A DNA stretch of 64,000 nucleotides from the IMG/VR virus record IMGVR_UViG_3300021600_000005, positions 26,169 through 90,168 of that record. One strand, 5' to 3'. Made by a program: the position numbers and the translations under genes. How positions within the stretch are numbered: the first letter of the stretch is position 1; every line of letters starts with the position of its first letter. The stretch is from a virus. Positions 2,383 to 31,421 of the stretch are shown piece after piece. The notes below the pieces were generated by a model. That model worked only from the letters and a program-made list of their open reading frames with translations, was not told the origin of the DNA and did no database searches.

Positions 2383-2931
2383 TTATAATCCGGAATCAGC
2401 AATAGGGATGCCATTGCTAACGACATCGAAAACCGAAACAACCTGCACCCGACCAAAGTAAGTTTTAGGCTGCCACACCAATACATCAGACAAAAGAAAC
2501 TTCTCTTGTGCCTTTTTGTATGTTCCAGATGGATTTGCAGGGATAAACCAATGCTGAAAAATAATCCTTTTACTTGCTACTCTTGAAAGTTCAGTTAGTA
2601 AATCGTGATTCCATTGAAACTTTCCGTTGTATGGTGGGTCGCAAATAACCGTTTCAAATTCGTTATCCTTTACAAAGTCTTTCATATTTGAAGCATCGCA
2701 AATTATATCAGGTTTATTTTCAGCATCAGCATCTAATCGAACATCTCCAAGCATTGATTTACCACTACAAACGTGCAATGTTCTACCGATGAACAATCCT
2801 TGCAAAACATCTTCAATGCTATCGTTCCAAAGTTTCTTTTTAACTCTGTAAATGTGGCTCGTTCCTGCCAACGGCACACTTCCTTTTGTCTTGTCAATAG
2901 CAGGTTGATTTTTGTAAGTTACATTTCCCAT
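2383..2931 (-). CDS. Putative DNA amino-methyltransferase
   Basis: SAM-binding-like LHVCSGKS and catalytic DPPY; visibly more GC-rich than its flanks. Confidence 0.75.
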   Translation of the reverse strand: MGNVTYKNQPAIDKTKGSVPLAGTSHIYRVKKKLWNDSIEDVLQGLFIGRTLHVCSGKSMLGDVRLDADAENKPDIICDASNMKDFVKDNEFETVICDPPYNGKFQWNHDLLTELSRVASKRIIFQHWFIPANPSGTYKKAQEKFLLSDVLVWQPKTYFGRVQVVSVFDVVSNGIPIADSGL

Positions 2932-2973
2932 ATTTATTATTTATTTAAGTTTTCGTTTCAAAATCCGCAACGG

Positions 2974-3071
2974 CATATAACAGCGGTTTTGTGCTATTTG
3001 CCCCATCAACATTTGTGGTAACTTGAAACTTTGTGCAAGGGGCAAACAGACACAAAGTCAGTACGGTCATA
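2974..3071 (+). mobile_element. attC-like imperfect palindrome next to the methyltransferase
   Basis: ATATAAC-agcggt-TTTGTGCTaTTTGCCCC...GGGGCAAAcAGaCACAAA: long stem with extrahelical bases and an R''-like TAAC. Confidence 0.5.
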
Positions 3072-3099
3072 ATTATAGTTAATATTATTGTCACAACTT

Positions 3100-3351
3100 T
3101 TATTTTTTTATTATTGGATTAATTATTATCACTTCTGATTCGGTTTCAATTATTACTCTTGCCCCACAAGATAGTATTGGTTTAGCATCACACCCCTCAC
3201 CACCATATATTATTTTACTCGGACCTAAAATTTCAACTTCATTACAATAAGTATTTTTTTTACCTTGTTTAACTGTAATCACAGGTAAATCAGTTCCTTT
3301 AGTTTTGTTAGAACGAATATTATGTTGGTTAACATGTATTCTTGTTTTCAT
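3100..3351 (-). CDS. Hypothetical phage protein (IHVNQH...LSCGARV)
   Basis: Clean ORF in the operon; motif pattern recalled from small phage proteins. Confidence 0.7.
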   Translation of the reverse strand: MKTRIHVNQHNIRSNKTKGTDLPVITVKQGKKNTYCNEVEILGPSKIIYGGEGCDAKPILSCGARVIIETESEVIIINPIIKK

Positions 3352-3354
3352 AAC

Positions 3355-4572
3355 TTAATTACTTAAAGGGGCTTTAATTGTTGGGTGTGATTGATAGTTT
3401 ATAAGTTTGAAGTTATCATAAACATATTCATCAAACTTTAAATCAGGATTAGTGACCATAACTAAGGTTGGTAACTTAAATGATTCTCTACTGATTTGTT
3501 CTTTAGCTTGCTCAATATGATTGAGATACAAGTGAGTATCACCTAAGTTTCCAATTAGCTCATCAGGAACCATATTAACTTCTTTAGCAATAATTTCTAA
3601 TAACAATCCATAACTTGCAATGTTAAATGGTAAACCTAAGAATGTATCTACTGAACGTTGATTCCACATTAAAGAGATTGCTCTGGTTGGAATGTTATAA
3701 TCATCAAATAAACTATTCCACCCATTTTCATCCGTTGGGAAAACATCCTTAATCCAAGATGATTTGTCGTAAATGTTTTTACGTTCTTGTGAACTCAACT
3801 CTTTTGTATAAACTTGAAATCCATAATGACAAGGTGGAAGAGTCATTTGGTCTAATTCTCCAACATTCCAGCTTGAAACCATTAATCGTCTTGAGTCTGG
3901 ATTTGTTTTAAGGTCGTTGATTAGATTTGCGATTTGGTCTATTGAATTATTTTGGTGCGTTACTTTAACATCATATTTACTATAATCTCCACCATCACGA
4001 ATTAAGTCCATAACTTTAACTTTGTCAGAACTTTTTACATTTTCTAAATCATAATTTATTACGTTTTTTTTACCCCAACTTCTCCATTGCTTACCATAAA
4101 TTGGACCTAACTCACCCCACTTATTTTCCCATTCTTTATCTGTTTTAATTTTATTGACAAAATCTTCTTTACTATATGGAATCTTAACTTCAGGACTATT
4201 AACATATCTCTTATAAGCATCGCCGTCCCAAATATGACAATCATTATCAACTAAATACTTAATATTAGTATCTCCTTTTAAAAACCATAACAATTCAGTT
4301 ACAATAGTTTTAAATGCCATCTTCTTAGTTGTAAGCAATGGAAATCCTTCACTCATCTTATGACGTATCTGTCTTCCAAAGATACTGATTGTTCCAGTCC
4401 CTGTTCTGTCCGACTTGGTTACTCCATTATCTAAGATGTCTTGGAGTAGGTCTGTGTATTGTTTATCTAATTTATTCATAACTTTTTCTTTTTGTGCGTA
4501 AGATAATACAGATGGCATACCACTATAATGACACCACAACTCACCTAAATTATCTTCATTATCTTCTTTCAT
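3355..4572 (-). CDS. thyA: Thymidylate synthase with N-terminal extension and insertions
   Basis: DRTGTGT, FPLLTTKK, ELLWFL, LPPCH, QRSVD.FLGLPFNIASY, DTHLY; start at 4572 gives an ATGA overlap (alternative start 4479). Confidence 0.95.
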   Translation of the reverse strand: MKEDNEDNLGELWCHYSGMPSVLSYAQKEKVMNKLDKQYTDLLQDILDNGVTKSDRTGTGTISIFGRQIRHKMSEGFPLLTTKKMAFKTIVTELLWFLKGDTNIKYLVDNDCHIWDGDAYKRYVNSPEVKIPYSKEDFVNKIKTDKEWENKWGELGPIYGKQWRSWGKKNVINYDLENVKSSDKVKVMDLIRDGGDYSKYDVKVTHQNNSIDQIANLINDLKTNPDSRRLMVSSWNVGELDQMTLPPCHYGFQVYTKELSSQERKNIYDKSSWIKDVFPTDENGWNSLFDDYNIPTRAISLMWNQRSVDTFLGLPFNIASYGLLLEIIAKEVNMVPDELIGNLGDTHLYLNHIEQAKEQISRESFKLPTLVMVTNPDLKFDEYVYDNFKLINYQSHPTIKAPLSN

Positions 4573-22613: not shown

Positions 22614-22685
22614 GCCCCCGTAGGTAAAGGGATATACCAAAAATTTTCTAAATTTTCGTTTCTGGTTCGAGTCCAGACGGGGGTA
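22614..22685 (+). tRNA. tRNA-Arg(UCU)
   Basis: Acceptor GCCCCCG/CGGGGGT, anticodon arm AAAAT-TTTCTAA-ATTTT, T arm TCTGG-TTCGAGT-CCAGA. Confidence 0.88.
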
Positions 22686-22707
22686 CAAAAAATAAGTTTA
22701 AAATAAA

Positions 22708-25329: not shown

Positions 25330-25400
25330 AGTCAGGTGGCGGAATGGTAGACGCAGGTATCTCAAGATATGATTACAAGGTTCGATTCCTGTTCTGATTA
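25330..25400 (+). tRNA. tRNA-like element (Leu-type D arm, aberrant anticodon arm containing CAA)
   Basis: Acceptor AGTCAGG/TCTGATT, D arm GCG-GAATGGTAGA-CGC, GGTTCGATTCC T loop; the anticodon stem closes only a 4-nt loop; no long variable arm. Confidence 0.6.
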
Positions 25401-25906: not shown

Positions 25907-26509
25907 ATGTCAACTCCCGTAATTGTAGCATTTATCACTGGTGTATTAGGTCCTATATTAGTATTATATATTAAAAGCTTTATAGATAAAAAAAACCCAA
26001 ATGATATGGTTAGAGACACTCTTCGTGTTAGTGAACTAGTAACCACAAAAATAGAACAAATTAAAGACGAATTTGATTCGGATAGAGTTTGGATAACTCA
26101 ATTTCATAATGGAGGTTCTTTTTACCCAACAGGTAAATCAATGGCCAAATTTAGTATTATTTATGAAAGCGTTGCTCCCGGAGCAACATCTATACAAAGT
26201 AATTTTCATAATATTCCAGTAAATTTATTTAGTAAATCAATAAATCAGTTATTAGAAAACGATTTAATTGAAGTTCCTGATTATAAAGATGAAGTAATTC
26301 ACACTTTTGGTTTAAGATATGTTGCTCAAGATACTGGTTGTAAATCAGGTTATTTATTCGCTATTAAAACTATTGAAGGAAAATTTATTGGGACTTTAGG
26401 TCTTGATTATACAAAGAAAAAACATAAACTAGACGAAGAGTCTATAATTCAGTTACAAGTACATGCATCTTCTTTAGGTGGGGTACTTATGACTCATTTA
26501 TTAGGATAA
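25907..26509 (+). CDS. N-terminal TM plus GAF-like domain (architecture like T4 holin T)
   Basis: TM at the N-terminus; DRVWITQFHNGG, IYE, FIGTLGLDY. Confidence 0.6.
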   Translation: MSTPVIVAFITGVLGPILVLYIKSFIDKKNPNDMVRDTLRVSELVTTKIEQIKDEFDSDRVWITQFHNGGSFYPTGKSMAKFSIIYESVAPGATSIQSNFHNIPVNLFSKSINQLLENDLIEVPDYKDEVIHTFGLRYVAQDTGCKSGYLFAIKTIEGKFIGTLGLDYTKKKHKLDEESIIQLQVHASSLGGVLMTHLLG

Positions 26510-26521
26510 AAAACAAATAAT

Positions 26522-27091
26522 ATGGATGATATAATAAGTAATATACTAATTGGGGTTAATCCAAAGGTAAAGTCCGGTAGTTTTGGGATTGGTGAGAATA
26601 CCGCAACTTATAATTGTAGTAGTAATGTTGATGTTTCATCACCAGTTGGCGGTAAAATTGAAAAAATAAATGGAACTGAGGTCATTATTGTATCTAATGC
26701 GGGAAATAAGTATACAATTAATGGAGTTTCTACTTCTTTGAGCGTAGGAGCCTCAGTATCTTCAGGGACTTCAATTGGTAAAACAAGTGGTAGACAGATA
26801 ACCTTAAAATCCAGACAAGATTTATCAAGTTTAGAGTCTACAGATGAAAAAAAAGAAAATAATGTTAATAATACTGAAAACTCAGGCGAGTTAGGGTTTA
26901 ATAGTGGTGAAACTCAAAAAATTTGGGATAAAACCGTAGGTAAGATGATTGGCATTTCAAACATACCATATGATGTTGCTTCAAAACGTATAAAAAAGGC
27001 AATTAAAAAGGTAACCTTAAAAAAAGAATCTATTGATATTAAAGATAATGTTTTATCTGAAGAATTAAAAAGAATCAAAAGTTTATTCTAA
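26522..27091 (+). CDS. Degenerate M23/hybrid-motif-like protein
   Basis: VSSPVGGKI...VGASVSSGTSIG without the zinc ligands. Confidence 0.5.
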   Translation: MDDIISNILIGVNPKVKSGSFGIGENTATYNCSSNVDVSSPVGGKIEKINGTEVIIVSNAGNKYTINGVSTSLSVGASVSSGTSIGKTSGRQITLKSRQDLSSLESTDEKKENNVNNTENSGELGFNSGETQKIWDKTVGKMIGISNIPYDVASKRIKKAIKKVTLKKESIDIKDNVLSEELKRIKSLF

Positions 27092-27346: not shown

Positions 27347-27433
27347 TTTTTATATTGTTTTTATTTACTCAATAAATATACTATTTCACCCAATAAGTCA
27401 ACATTTATTAAAAAAATATTTTTTTTAATAAAA

Positions 27434-27733
27434 TTTGGTTTTTAATATAAAATGATTACATTTGTAGAACTTTGATAAAGTTTAATGTATTTATAAAACA
27501 CGTAAAATTTATTAAAAAAAGATTTGACAGTTTAAAAAAAATGTCTTATTTTTGTAAAAGAATTGATAGTTTTTAATGTATTTGTAAGACATAAAAAAAT
27601 ATTAAAAAAAGATTTGGTAAATCAAAAAACTTTACCTAACTTTGTAAAAGAATTGATAGTTTTTAATGTGTTTGTAAAACATAAAAAAAATTAAAAAAAG
27701 ATTTGGTAAATTAAAAAAAAATACCTAACTTTG
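27434..27733 (+). promoter_or_regulatory. Four tandem ~89-90-bp repeats, each a complete Bacteroidota promoter
   Basis: -33 TTTG at 27434, 27523, 27613, 27702; -7 TAnnTTTG at 27457, 27547, 27637, 27726. Confidence 0.85.
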
Positions 27734-27760
27734 TAAAAGATATCAGAAACGTCTGATTGT

Positions 27761-27771
27761 GTTCTTTGAAA
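27761..27771 (+). promoter_or_regulatory. boxA-like antitermination site
   Basis: GTTCTTTGAAA after a short hairpin (ATCAGA..TCTGAT), as in rRNA leaders. Confidence 0.55.
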
Positions 27772-27774
27772 TAT

Positions 27775-28640
27775 TATTATCCGTTTGACGGATTAAAATG
27801 AAACCTTCGGGTTAATTTTGAACTCCGTCAATAAATGATAATCGGCCGTGTATGGTCGTTAAATAAACCACGAAAGTGGGATAAAGTGAATTTACTTGTG
27901 TTAGTAAGTTTGCGGTTTCTTTAGAAACTCGAGTACACAAGTGGGATATCATCCGACCTTTATTACTGAGGGCGACGCTTTAAGGAAAGTGGTTGGATGG
28001 TTTGGGAATGTGGATTCTCAAACTGAGTTCGGAAGAACAATAAAAGTAACCCATAGGAATCAAGTAAAAAATGTGGCACCAACCATATAATTGCGGGTTC
28101 CAATGTTAAAGAGGACTTAAAACCGAAAGGTAAGATAAAGAACAAGTGGTGTTGTTATTATCCTTACATATCATCCGCCAAGATGTATGTTTGAAGTAAT
28201 CTTAAAATATTGAGATAGGGATATTTCACTGAGTAGAAAAGCATTTTGATTCTCAAAAGGAGTTGAAGCTTAAGATGGACCTCTACTTGGACGCATCCAC
28301 GACACATAAAACTTATACCAAATTTTAAGTAAAATTAAACTAAATATAAGCAAAAGTGTTCATCAGGTTTTGATGAAAGTCGCCTACATAGTCATGGGTT
28401 GTCCATGGCATACTAAGACCGCAAGTCGAAGTATATTTTTACCAAAAACCTCTAAGGAGTCGAATCCTGAGTTAACTCGCAAGGTTAAGGAGAGTGGAGT
28501 AGTAAAAGAGTAGTTGAAACCTTTAGGAGTGATTAGTCTAACTAATCGGCGATGAGACTTACCATTCAAAAGATGGTGGAAACAAAGGGAACTAATAATC
28601 CTTTAAAAGATTCTCACATATAGGTGTATTCTCAGCCTAA
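27775..28640 (+). ncRNA. Giant structured ncRNA, GOLLD-like
   Basis: ~860 nt, GC-elevated, no credible ORF; many GNRA/UUCG hairpins (AACC-TTCG-GGTT, CCAC-GAAA-GTGG, ACC-GAAA-GGT, GAC-CGCAA-GTC) and repeated GAGTA loop-E-like motifs; family call from recall. Confidence 0.72.
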
Positions 28641-29067
28641 ATTAAATATTGTAACAAAAATTGTTTATTAAATTAAACACTGGAGATGATACCTCATTAC
28701 AATACAAGTGGTTCCCAAGTTGTTTCCTTCATAACAACAGCAATGAACTAAAACTTGCAAAAATAAAATGAAAGGTTTTTTATTGGTGATTTAGTTAATT
28801 TATCACATTTTGGTACCACATCCAAAAAGATTAAAAAATAAACACTTTTTATGACTTCGGATGTCACAGGTTAGTTCAAACCAAAAAAACTCATGTCACT
28901 TTTGTTTAGAAAGTTTTGTTTTATAAACAGTCTTCTATTTTAGTGGTTAACTAAAAATGAAACAATTGAATAAACGGTTTTGTTAGAATTACCAAAAAAA
29001 AGTAACGTCACAAACTACTTTCGTATAATATCCAATTTACGTTCTAACAACTGGGTAAAGGCTAAAT

Positions 29068-29106
29068 AGGGAGGTTTGATTAGCCGTCAGACCTCCCTTT
29101 CTTTTT
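29068..29106 (+). terminator. Intrinsic terminator ending the ncRNA transcription unit
   Basis: AGGGAGGTTTGA-ttagccg-TCAGACCTCCCT followed by a T tract. Confidence 0.8.
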
Positions 29107-29165
29107 GAAAAATCTTTAATATTATTATGGTACCCTTGAGGTATAAAAACTAAAAATTTAATAGC

Positions 29166-29501
29166 ATGGAAATGTATTATTTTTCTTTAGGTATTCTTTC
29201 GATTATTAGTCTAATTTTTTGTAGTCTAATTGTTTGGGGTTTAGTTAAGGTGATTAAAACAAAAAATGATTTAGAAAATTTCAAAGAGTCTTATAAATGG
29301 GATTTAGAATGTAACCATAGAAGATTTGATGACAACAAAAGAGAGGTTAATCTTCATATGGAAGCTTTCAATAGAAATATTGAAGAGACCGTTAACAGTG
29401 TACACCGCTCAATTGATGAAAATTTTAATGAATCTAGAAGTTACACCGACAAACGAATTGACAAATTTTTAAACAAGTCAATTGACTCTGAAAAGAATTA
29501 A
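29166..29501 (+). CDS. TM plus coiled-coil hypothetical protein
   Basis: N-terminal TM; C-terminal SYTDKRIDK. Confidence 0.65.
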   Translation: MEMYYFSLGILSIISLIFCSLIVWGLVKVIKTKNDLENFKESYKWDLECNHRRFDDNKREVNLHMEAFNRNIEETVNSVHRSIDENFNESRSYTDKRIDKFLNKSIDSEKN

Positions 29502-29502
29502 C

Positions 29503-29530
29503 AAAAACCCCACTTATATGTGGGGTTTTT
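29503..29530. terminator. Bidirectional terminator
   Basis: AAAAACCCCAC-ttatat-GTGGGGTTTTT. Confidence 0.85.
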
Positions 29531-29534
29531 TAAT

Positions 29535-29927
29535 TGGTGGAGGCGGAGGGCTCCGACTCCCTCGTCCAAGTAACCCCGATTAACCAGGACTACACGCTTA
29601 GTATAAAGTTTTCTAACTTTCCAAAAATACTTAATTCTCTTATTTTATAGTGGTTCGATTTATCAAGAACTTAACTTCCACTTGTCTCTTTTTGGGTAGA
29701 GTCCACACCATTGCAAGGACTTCTGTTCCTAGGTTATATGTCCGCCGACCCGAAACTGTTACTTAATCTAATTAAGCTACAGCAACTTCCTCAGTACGGA
29801 TTAATCCAACTGATGAAAGTTTGTTGATGATGTTATCACCTGAAAAGTAAACCAGTTTTTACAAGGTTAGTTTAGCCTCGACGTGCCCCAATTAACAGAA
29901 AAAACCTGTCAAATCCAAAGCGCCCCC
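29535..29927 (-). ncRNA. ssrA: tmRNA
   Basis: 5' GGGGGCG/CGCCTCC-ACCA 3' acceptor stem with G3.U70, GGATTTGAC, pk1 and tag ORF GDNIINKLSSVGLIRTEEVAVA*. Confidence 0.93.
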
Positions 29928-29955: not shown

Positions 29956-29986
29956 CAAATATAATTATAATTTGACAATTATCAAA
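29956..29986 (-). promoter_or_regulatory. Bacteroidota-type promoter of tmRNA
   Basis: TTTG-N19-TATATTTG on the minus strand. Confidence 0.75.
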
Positions 29987-30020
29987 TTTTTAATATTTAT
30001 TCTTAAACATATTTATAAAT

Positions 30021-31421
30021 ATGCCAGAACAAGAAGAAGAAAATAAAAACTTAGCTTATGAACATTCTAGGGTTTTATATGATACTGACGATTTGATGTT
30101 AGTTGAAGTTGAAAATTACGATGGGGCTAAGTATTTTGGACCTAATTTTGTAGAAAGAAATTATTTTAAAAATTATAATAATGGTGTCTTGTATTTTATT
30201 ATTAATAAAAAAGAAATAACTAAAGAGTCTTTTAAATCGTCAACCTATACAATTTATATTGAGGGTAAGGGCAATGAAACCCATATTTTTAATCCTTTGG
30301 GGGATAAAATTTCATTGTCTGAAATTATTAAAACATTTCCAGTTTTAGAAACTCGTTTAATAGAAATACTAGGTGTTAGTGGTATATATTCAGCATTATT
30401 ATCAATAAAGAATGGGAATGAAACGACTTCATACCAATTACAAAGACATGATGATTTAATATCTGGGTTTAAATTTAAAGAAAAATCTCCCGGTAATAGT
30501 ATGGTATCTTTAACGTTTGCTAATGAAAGTAAATTTTTTGAGTTATTTGGATTTGATGAAAATGACATGTGGGCTTTAAACGTAATTATGAGTAGATATG
30601 GAGCCGATGATGTATTTTACTCAAATGACTACGCATATTCAGATTTTAAAGAAGGATACCTTATTAGGGAGTTTTCTAATGAAAATATGGATAAAGTCAA
30701 AGAAATAATATCGTATTTAGAACCATCAATACTTCCTATAAATGATGAAAATGATAAATTAGAGAATGTTTCACAGATTTTATTTAAAACTTTTGAAAGT
30801 GAATGTGAATCATTTATTAATGATTATTCAAGTATGATGAATAACTGCAAACAAAGCGCAGCTCTTGACGATGTATACGATGATTTAGGGGATGTTTTAA
30901 TTAAATATGGAATGTTAACTAAAACACCACTATATAAATATTACACAACTGTATCAACTCTTTTAGCTCTATATGATATGACAGGAGTAAAAGATGGAAG
31001 TATAACTGATGTTTTAACTAAGTTACTAAATGATTCTCACGGCGGAGGATGGTCCGATAGTTTATATGAATACGATTGTAAAGATTTTGGTAGTGAAGAA
31101 TTTAATAACGGCGTTTCTTGGGAATTAGATAAAATGTTAGAACAACTTTTAGATTCTGATAAATTTGCTAATTTAGAAGTGTATAGAAAGGCTCTTTCAA
31201 TTTTAGATAAATACACTATAGGGTTTACCTATGAACTTCCAAGAAATAAAAAGGAAAAGTTTAAAATTATGAGTCTTGACCCGGCAACAAACAAATTTAC
31301 AATAAGATATTTTTCAAGCGAAAATACTTCTGGTATTGGGACTAGAAATAATCCTGGAGAATTAAGGTCATTCACTTTGGATGAATTTAACAATTTTTTA
31401 CATACACCAGAACTTTTTTAA
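30021..31421 (+). CDS. Hypothetical acidic protein
   Basis: 466-aa ORF, TATTTATA upstream, ends PELF. Confidence 0.75.
   Translation: MPEQEEENKNLAYEHSRVLYDTDDLMLVEVENYDGAKYFGPNFVERNYFKNYNNGVLYFIINKKEITKESFKSSTYTIYIEGKGNETHIFNPLGDKISLSEIIKTFPVLETRLIEILGVSGIYSALLSIKNGNETTSYQLQRHDDLISGFKFKEKSPGNSMVSLTFANESKFFELFGFDENDMWALNVIMSRYGADDVFYSNDYAYSDFKEGYLIREFSNENMDKVKEIISYLEPSILPINDENDKLENVSQILFKTFESECESFINDYSSMMNNCKQSAALDDVYDDLGDVLIKYGMLTKTPLYKYYTTVSTLLALYDMTGVKDGSITDVLTKLLNDSHGGGWSDSLYEYDCKDFGSEEFNNGVSWELDKMLEQLLDSDKFANLEVYRKALSILDKYTIGFTYELPRNKKEKFKIMSLDPATNKFTIRYFSSENTSGIGTRNNPGELRSFTLDEFNNFLHTPELF

Follow-up and report, generated by a model that had tools for sequence, protein, structure and literature searches.

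The stretch of viral DNA analysed here, hereafter the window, comprises 64,000 nucleotides, positions 26169-90168 of a 90,168-bp IMG/VR virus record that is about 30% complete according to CheckV. The window encodes a terminase large subunit, a portal protein, a major head protein and an endolysin. A ClpB/ClpC-like two-ring AAA ATPase and an M20-like peptidase are encoded near a block, positions 27775-28640, in which the longest open reading frame is 61 aa and which is overlapped by short reading frames of 46-61 aa. The GC content of the block is 36.6%, compared with 22.5% and 28.0% in its flanks and 28.5% in the window as a whole. Folded as a single sequence, its plus strand has a z-score of -3.7 relative to shuffled sequences. 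The initial description of the block as GC-elevated, free of reading frames and dense in hairpins is thus accurate.

The block contains a match to the GOLLD family of RNAs (Rfam RF02032) on the plus strand at 28229-28638, with a score of 306.8 bits and an E-value of 7e-87 in a search of the whole window against Rfam 15. The score is twice the gathering cut-off of the family, 150 bits, and the match covers model positions 1-416 of 416, which is the full length of the model without truncation. The same match is found in a record-wide search and in a permissive local search of positions 27400-29560. ROOL, the other family considered, gives no match at the gathering score in the whole window, nor at E<=1 in 27400-29560. 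Besides GOLLD, the permissive search of that region returns only sub-threshold matches, which are probably due to chance, and the spacer and trailing region downstream of the block match no family. The GOLLD-like identity, proposed in the first-pass annotation together with a search of this kind as its test, is therefore confirmed, and the model score leaves practically no doubt about the family. The E-value and the fold z-score exclude a chance origin of the block. Its proposed limits are good as well: the outer 5' stem begins at 27775 and the Rfam match ends at 28638. The total length of the RNA, comprising a 5' domain, a linker and a 3' domain, is about 865 nt.

The GOLLD family was described in 2009, carries 'lake-derived' in its name and is among the largest non-coding RNAs of bacteria and phages. 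The standard model detects the present copy at twice the cut-off; it is an ordinary, well-conserved member of this family. The plus strand of the window from about 27740 to 28640 is very probably a complete, intact GOLLD gene of a large lake phage, the host of which is probably a member of the Bacteroidota. The features of the locus are collected in the table.

Table. Features of the GOLLD locus and extent of the matching contigs from RNA libraries (window coordinates)
Feature	Positions	Strand	Basis and remarks
Degenerate extra promoter copy (weaker fourth)	27434-27464	+	Motif scan
Tandem repeat, 90 nt x 2.9 copies, promoter in each	27481-27740	+	Tandem Repeats Finder: period 90, 84% matches, score 357
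Promoter copy 1, TTTG(ACA)-N20-TAnnTTTG	27523-27554	+	Motif scan; sigma-70 scan: TTGACA-17-TATTTT
Promoter copy 2, TTTG-N20-TAACTTTG	27613-27644	+	Motif scan
Promoter copy 3 (proximal), TTTG-N20-TAACTTTG	27702-27733	+	Motif scan
Small leader hairpin ATCAGA/TCTGAT, boxB-like position	27742-27757	+	
BoxA-like word GTTCTTTGAAA	27761-27771	+	
GOLLD 5' domain	27775-28290	+	Outer hairpin 27775-27842 variable; some 20 conserved helices follow; Rfam model begins with the last stem, 28229-28290
A-rich variable linker	28291-28364	+	Unpaired positions 63-136 of the Rfam model
GOLLD conserved 3' domain	28365-28638	+	Rfam RF02032 match; ends in AGGTGTATTCTCAGCCT
Spacer, 67 nt	28639-28705	+	7-bp ATTGTAA/TTACAAT stem resembling an acceptor stem; alignment of relatives
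Conserved trailing non-coding region, about 400 nt	28706-29108	+	Iterated nhmmer; intrinsic terminator 29068-29098 and T run
RNA-library contig, run X16	27816-28587		3 differences; sequencing adapters at both ends
RNA-library contig, run X17	27788-28602		4 differences
RNA-library contigs (overlapping), run X15	27862-28654		
RNA-library contigs (overlapping), run X18	27862-28582		

The Rfam model spans the 3' domain, the A-rich linker and, of the 5' domain, only the last stem. About 450 nt further upstream (27775-28228) lie outside the model and hence needed a test of their own. In a blastn search against phage records, the element is found over query positions 77-827 in LR756502 (642 kb) and LR745206 (634 kb) with 64-69% identity; these are the closest named records, and both have a GOLLD Rfam match where it is expected. 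A loose pattern for the 3' domain retrieved 11 loci, only two of which have GOLLD; a more stringent one, based on the invariant 3' end, retrieved 97 viral stretches. Using nhmmer profiles built from a five-sequence alignment, a homologue of the 5' domain was found directly adjoining the 3' domain in about 47 viral loci of these stretches.

The fold of the 5' domain was derived from an alignment of 24 non-redundant copies. The RNAalifold consensus has 123 pairs, 91 of them with compensatory changes. In a version of the fold with 137 pairs, 96.2% of the cells are paired, compared with 80.9% in column shuffles and 36-43% in a slid control, in which the partners were moved by 1-3 columns. Double (compensatory) changes occur at 94 of the 137 pairs, compared with 57 in the shuffles, and the covariation score over the 24 copies is 0.511, compared with 0.07-0.11 in the controls. 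A lack of covariation had been named at the outset as grounds for rejecting the RNA; the covariation is strong. The many invariant G-U pairs identify the plus strand as the RNA strand. The window copy retains almost every consensus helix of the 5' domain intact.

The outer 5' stem pairs ATTATC at 27777-27782 with GATAAT, which lies just before CGGCCG at 27843. Two long-range pairings proposed in the first-pass annotation fared differently. TTGACGGA at 27785 and TCCGTCAA at 27824 do pair in the single-sequence fold, as part of the variable outer hairpin, the inner stem of which, below a UUCG loop, visibly covaries among the relatives. ACTTGTGT at 27894 and ACACAAGT at 27935 are both present, but the conserved fold pairs these bases differently, 27886-27894 with 27905-27913 and 27848-27853 with 27933-27938, both with compensatory changes. 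The pairing of ACTTGTGT with ACACAAGT is therefore probably not native.

The A-rich linker, first placed at about 28305-28350, lies within the linker of the Rfam model, and the recognition of two domains around it agrees with the published GOLLD layout (10.1101/2024.12.08.627333). ARAGORN finds no tRNA embedded in the linker. Every GOLLD copy compared ends in AGGTGTAnTCTCAGCC. The 3' domain has a hairpin at 28455-28468, whose loop in the window copy and in the copies of loci L104, L051, L013 and L014 is GUCGAA (28459-28464) and contains the self-complementary UCGA. The remaining 19 copies have a four-base loop in this hairpin, GCAA in 17 of them. Through the GUCGAA loop, subunits could gain a symmetric loop-loop contact or exchange one for another. 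By eye, nine bases of the trailing RNA (around 28888) were seen to be complementary to GCAAAAGUG, a conserved sequence of the linker. This complementarity was rejected; it is at chance level in AT-rich sequence and is not conserved.

The region upstream of GOLLD is occupied by the tandem repeat, each copy of which carries a promoter. The TTTG-N20-TAnnTTTG words correspond to the promoter consensus of Bacteroidota. The promoter word followed by TAAAAC is present in 18 of the 24 non-redundant relatives, about 10 of which have at least two tandem copies. Transcription would start at about 27738-27742. The leader hairpin recurs at the same place in the relatives with other sequences, such as TTCGG/CCGAA, ATCGG/CCGAT or TCAGG/CCTGA, and 22 of the 24 contain GTTCTTTGA exactly. 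The boxA-like word together with the preceding T matches the E. coli rrn boxA at 9 of 12 positions, the E. coli sequence being derived from the Aquifex 12-mer and three stated differences (PMC3177189). The leader hairpin and boxA-like word probably mark the start of the RNA unit, which would then lie about 35 nt before 27775. The layout of promoter, hairpin and boxA is kept upstream of GOLLD in most of the 24 loci, even where GOLLD follows a tRNA (L014).

Downstream, the position of the spacer is occupied in relatives by tRNA-Met, which begins 14-16 nt after GOLLD (L027, L049 and L056), or by a tRNA-like mini-helix with a TTCAAGT T-loop (L053). Neither ARAGORN nor the permissive Rfam search calls a tRNA in the spacer of the window, which may be a decayed remnant of a tRNA kept as a processing signal. 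The trailing region is found by iterated nhmmer downstream of GOLLD and on the same strand in about 30 loci, and has no reading frame longer than 39 aa. It was also considered as an ornate RNA in its own right. This was rejected, because it folds no better than shuffled sequences on either strand (z-scores of -0.6 and -0.4) and its consensus structure is weak, with 22 pairs and few conserved hairpins. The first terminator 3' of GOLLD found in a terminator scan is the strong one at 29068-29098, and no promoter word is seen between 28640 and 28716. In many relatives an intrinsic terminator or a tRNA follows after the end of GOLLD. On balance, co-transcription of GOLLD and the trailing RNA is moderately favoured.

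Two proteins recur around the element. The 111-aa protein encoded at 29166-29501 (+) has a membrane helix at its N-terminus and belongs to no Pfam or PHROG family; it occurs just after the trailing-RNA terminator in about 15 related loci with 37-50% identity. Positions 25907-26509 (+) encode a 200-aa protein of no assigned function with a weak match to PHROG 38864. Its conservation is unusually high: about 18 related loci have it at a distance of 1-2.5 kb from GOLLD, with 64-73% identity in most and 52% in two. The phages are related to one another, so that common gene order alone shows no functional link.

The stretch is present in 20 public sequencing runs from 18 studies, all of lakes or freshwater, and six of the runs are metatranscriptomes. 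Contigs from four RNA runs of four studies were compared, and their main extents are given in the table. The near-identical contigs include those at 28114-28654 and 28114-28582, and others of 770-815 nt. Separate contigs cover 28716-29023 in three runs from three studies and the tmRNA (see below) in two runs, and no contig among the four RNA runs bridges GOLLD and the trailing RNA. The absence of a transcript had been named beforehand as evidence against the RNA. The sequence does occur in lake RNA libraries, over almost its full length, with the proviso that such libraries can contain DNA and that the contigs record presence there, not strand, ends, level or transcription. Contig depths, likewise, cannot rank genes. 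The leader (27740-27787), the promoter repeats and the coding flanks 26500-27035 and 29984-30500 have no contig cover, which is no evidence of their absence. The orientation of the adapters on two X16 contigs would fit an RNA of the plus strand if the library were stranded, and is given no weight.

GOLLD RNAs frequently, though not always, lie beside or inside tRNA clusters. This usual neighbourhood is missing from the present copy, next to which neither ARAGORN nor Rfam finds a tRNA. The sole tRNA of the 90-kb record, Arg-tct at 22614-22686, lies about 5 kb upstream. A borderline tRNA match at 25330-25400 (+), with 31 bits against a cut-off of 29, is not called by ARAGORN. In relatives, tRNA-Met lies either 14-21 nt or a few hundred nucleotides from GOLLD. 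On the other side, 0.9 kb downstream of GOLLD, Rfam finds a tmRNA on the minus strand at 29535-29927 (98.6 bits) that ARAGORN misses. Loci L006 and L008 likewise have a tmRNA at a distance of 1-2 kb from GOLLD.

The two named records have full-length GOLLD copies flanked by tRNA, at 2918-3822 in LR756502 (locus L013) and at 2915-3840 in LR745206 (L014). Huge phages with genomes of more than 634 kb have been predicted to infect Bacteroidetes in a paper in which GOLLD is nowhere mentioned (PMC7162821). This prediction for phages of the size of LR756502 and LR745206, together with the promoter type, indicates that the host of the present phage is probably also a member of the Bacteroidota. In the literature searched there is no paper linking GOLLD to tmRNA neighbourhoods or to huge phages.

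Other interpretations of the block were weighed against an intact GOLLD gene. The flanking tRNA of the relatives is absent from this copy or degenerate in it, as might be expected of a decayed, non-functional relic carried along by the phage. Such decay is, however, difficult to reconcile with a high-scoring match to the entire model, with 5' domain helices that are nearly all intact, with the conservation of the promoters and leader, and with the occurrence of the sequence in the RNA libraries of four studies, and a relic is highly improbable. Translation of the block, or its service as a long leader of the neighbouring gene, is scarcely conceivable: short reading frames do overlap it, but none of them is long, the substitutions among relatives preserve base pairs and not a reading frame, and the next gene (29166-29501) lies behind the strong terminator.

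A new class of large RNA that merely resembles GOLLD might be suspected from the 5' half, which lies outside the Rfam model. This possibility is already refuted by a match at twice the gathering score and retains a negligible probability. The published definition of the family already permits a variable 5' domain (10.1101/2024.12.08.627333; PMC12990946), and the 5' half of the window copy is common to other loci that also have the Rfam-type 3' domain.

The arrangement of these features suggests a pathway by which the RNA may be produced. Host RNA polymerase would transcribe GOLLD strongly from the three or four tandem promoters. The leader hairpin and the boxA-like word would then recruit host anti-termination factors of the rRNA type (Nus), and the long untranslated transcript would thereby escape Rho. 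The primary transcript is envisaged to continue through the spacer, the place of tRNA-Met in relatives, and through the trailing RNA of about 400 nt to the terminator at 29068-29098, and to be cut subsequently into separate RNAs, GOLLD and the trailing RNA. By analogy with other GOLLD RNAs studied by cryo-EM, the two domains of the mature RNA of about 865 nt would fold into a 'cap' (5') and a 'ring' (3'), and about 12-14 copies would self-assemble without protein into a closed cage with the A-rich linker directed inward. Cage formation by the lake-phage copy is thus predicted from its relatives.

To our knowledge, no function of the cage has been established for any GOLLD. A tentative proposal, possible but short of probable, is that GOLLD serves the takeover or protection of translation in infected cells, where it would hold or shield tRNAs, tmRNA or factors bound to ribosomes. 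It is favoured by the tRNA-Met neighbours in relatives, by the nearby phage tmRNA and protease components, and by the published ribosome pull-down and increase of expression during lysis (10.1101/2024.12.08.627333). A further and rather unlikely idea is that the trailing RNA is a working partner or the cargo of the GOLLD cage, both being produced from a phage RNA operon resembling an rRNA operon. If true, GOLLD would be the first cistron of a unit consisting of the promoter stack, the boxA leader, GOLLD, a tRNA-Met-derived spacer, the trailing RNA and the terminator.

The locus is a clean, full-length and perhaps well-expressed example of GOLLD from a lineage of lake phages of which many relatives have been sequenced. 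At least 24 non-redundant copies are available for an alignment of the 5' domain, which is poorly modelled. Experiments on the production and possible partners of the RNA could start from the promoter stack of host type, the leader with its boxA-like word, the spacer or the tRNA-Met in its place, and the conserved trailing RNA. The presence of GOLLD in phage genomes of 642 and 634 kb, which are among the largest known, had also gone unremarked.

Published GOLLD RNAs have a variable 5' domain, a variable linker (J13/15) and a conserved 3' domain; in the solved cages, the cap consists of the 5' domain and the ring of the 3' domain, and the linker faces the interior (10.1101/2024.12.08.627333; PMC12990946). 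The metagenomic env-38 GOLLD, which is 833 nt long and lies downstream of tRNA-Met, forms a 14-mer cage by cryo-EM (10.1101/2024.12.08.627333), and the 700-nt GOLLD of Streptococcus agalactiae forms a 12-mer (PMC12990946). The lake-phage copy, with its length of about 865 nt and large 5' domain, appears to resemble the env-38 type. Both have a full 3' domain, a structured 5' domain and an A-rich unstructured linker, both are phage-encoded and come from aquatic metagenomes, and tRNA-Met is a neighbour of env-38 as well as of the close relatives of the lake-phage copy. The lake-phage copy differs from env-38 in that it has no adjacent tRNA and has its own tandem promoters, boxA-like leader and trailing RNA of about 400 nt. 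Its 3'-domain hairpin loop at 28459-28464 is GUCGAA, whereas most relatives have GCAA. The copies of S. agalactiae, of Lactobacillales and of Mycobacterium tRNA arrays belong to the same family and share the conserved 3' domain, but they are shorter, lack several 5' helices and reside in prophages or tRNA arrays of Gram-positive hosts. Some copies of Gram-positive hosts carry a tRNA within the linker, whereas the linker of the lake-phage copy is plain.

ROOL RNAs are likewise large, ornate, phage-associated, often near tRNAs and capable of forming cages of RNA only. They have no Rfam match at this locus, and their published sequence and fold are unrelated. The order of a promoter stack, hairpin, boxA-like word, structured RNA, spacer or (in relatives) tRNA, second RNA and terminator is that of a bacterial rRNA operon, with its tandem promoters, boxB-boxA leader, Nus anti-termination and tRNA spacer. 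The lake-phage unit differs from such an operon in carrying GOLLD and an unnamed trailing RNA in place of rRNA, and its binding of Nus factors is putative.
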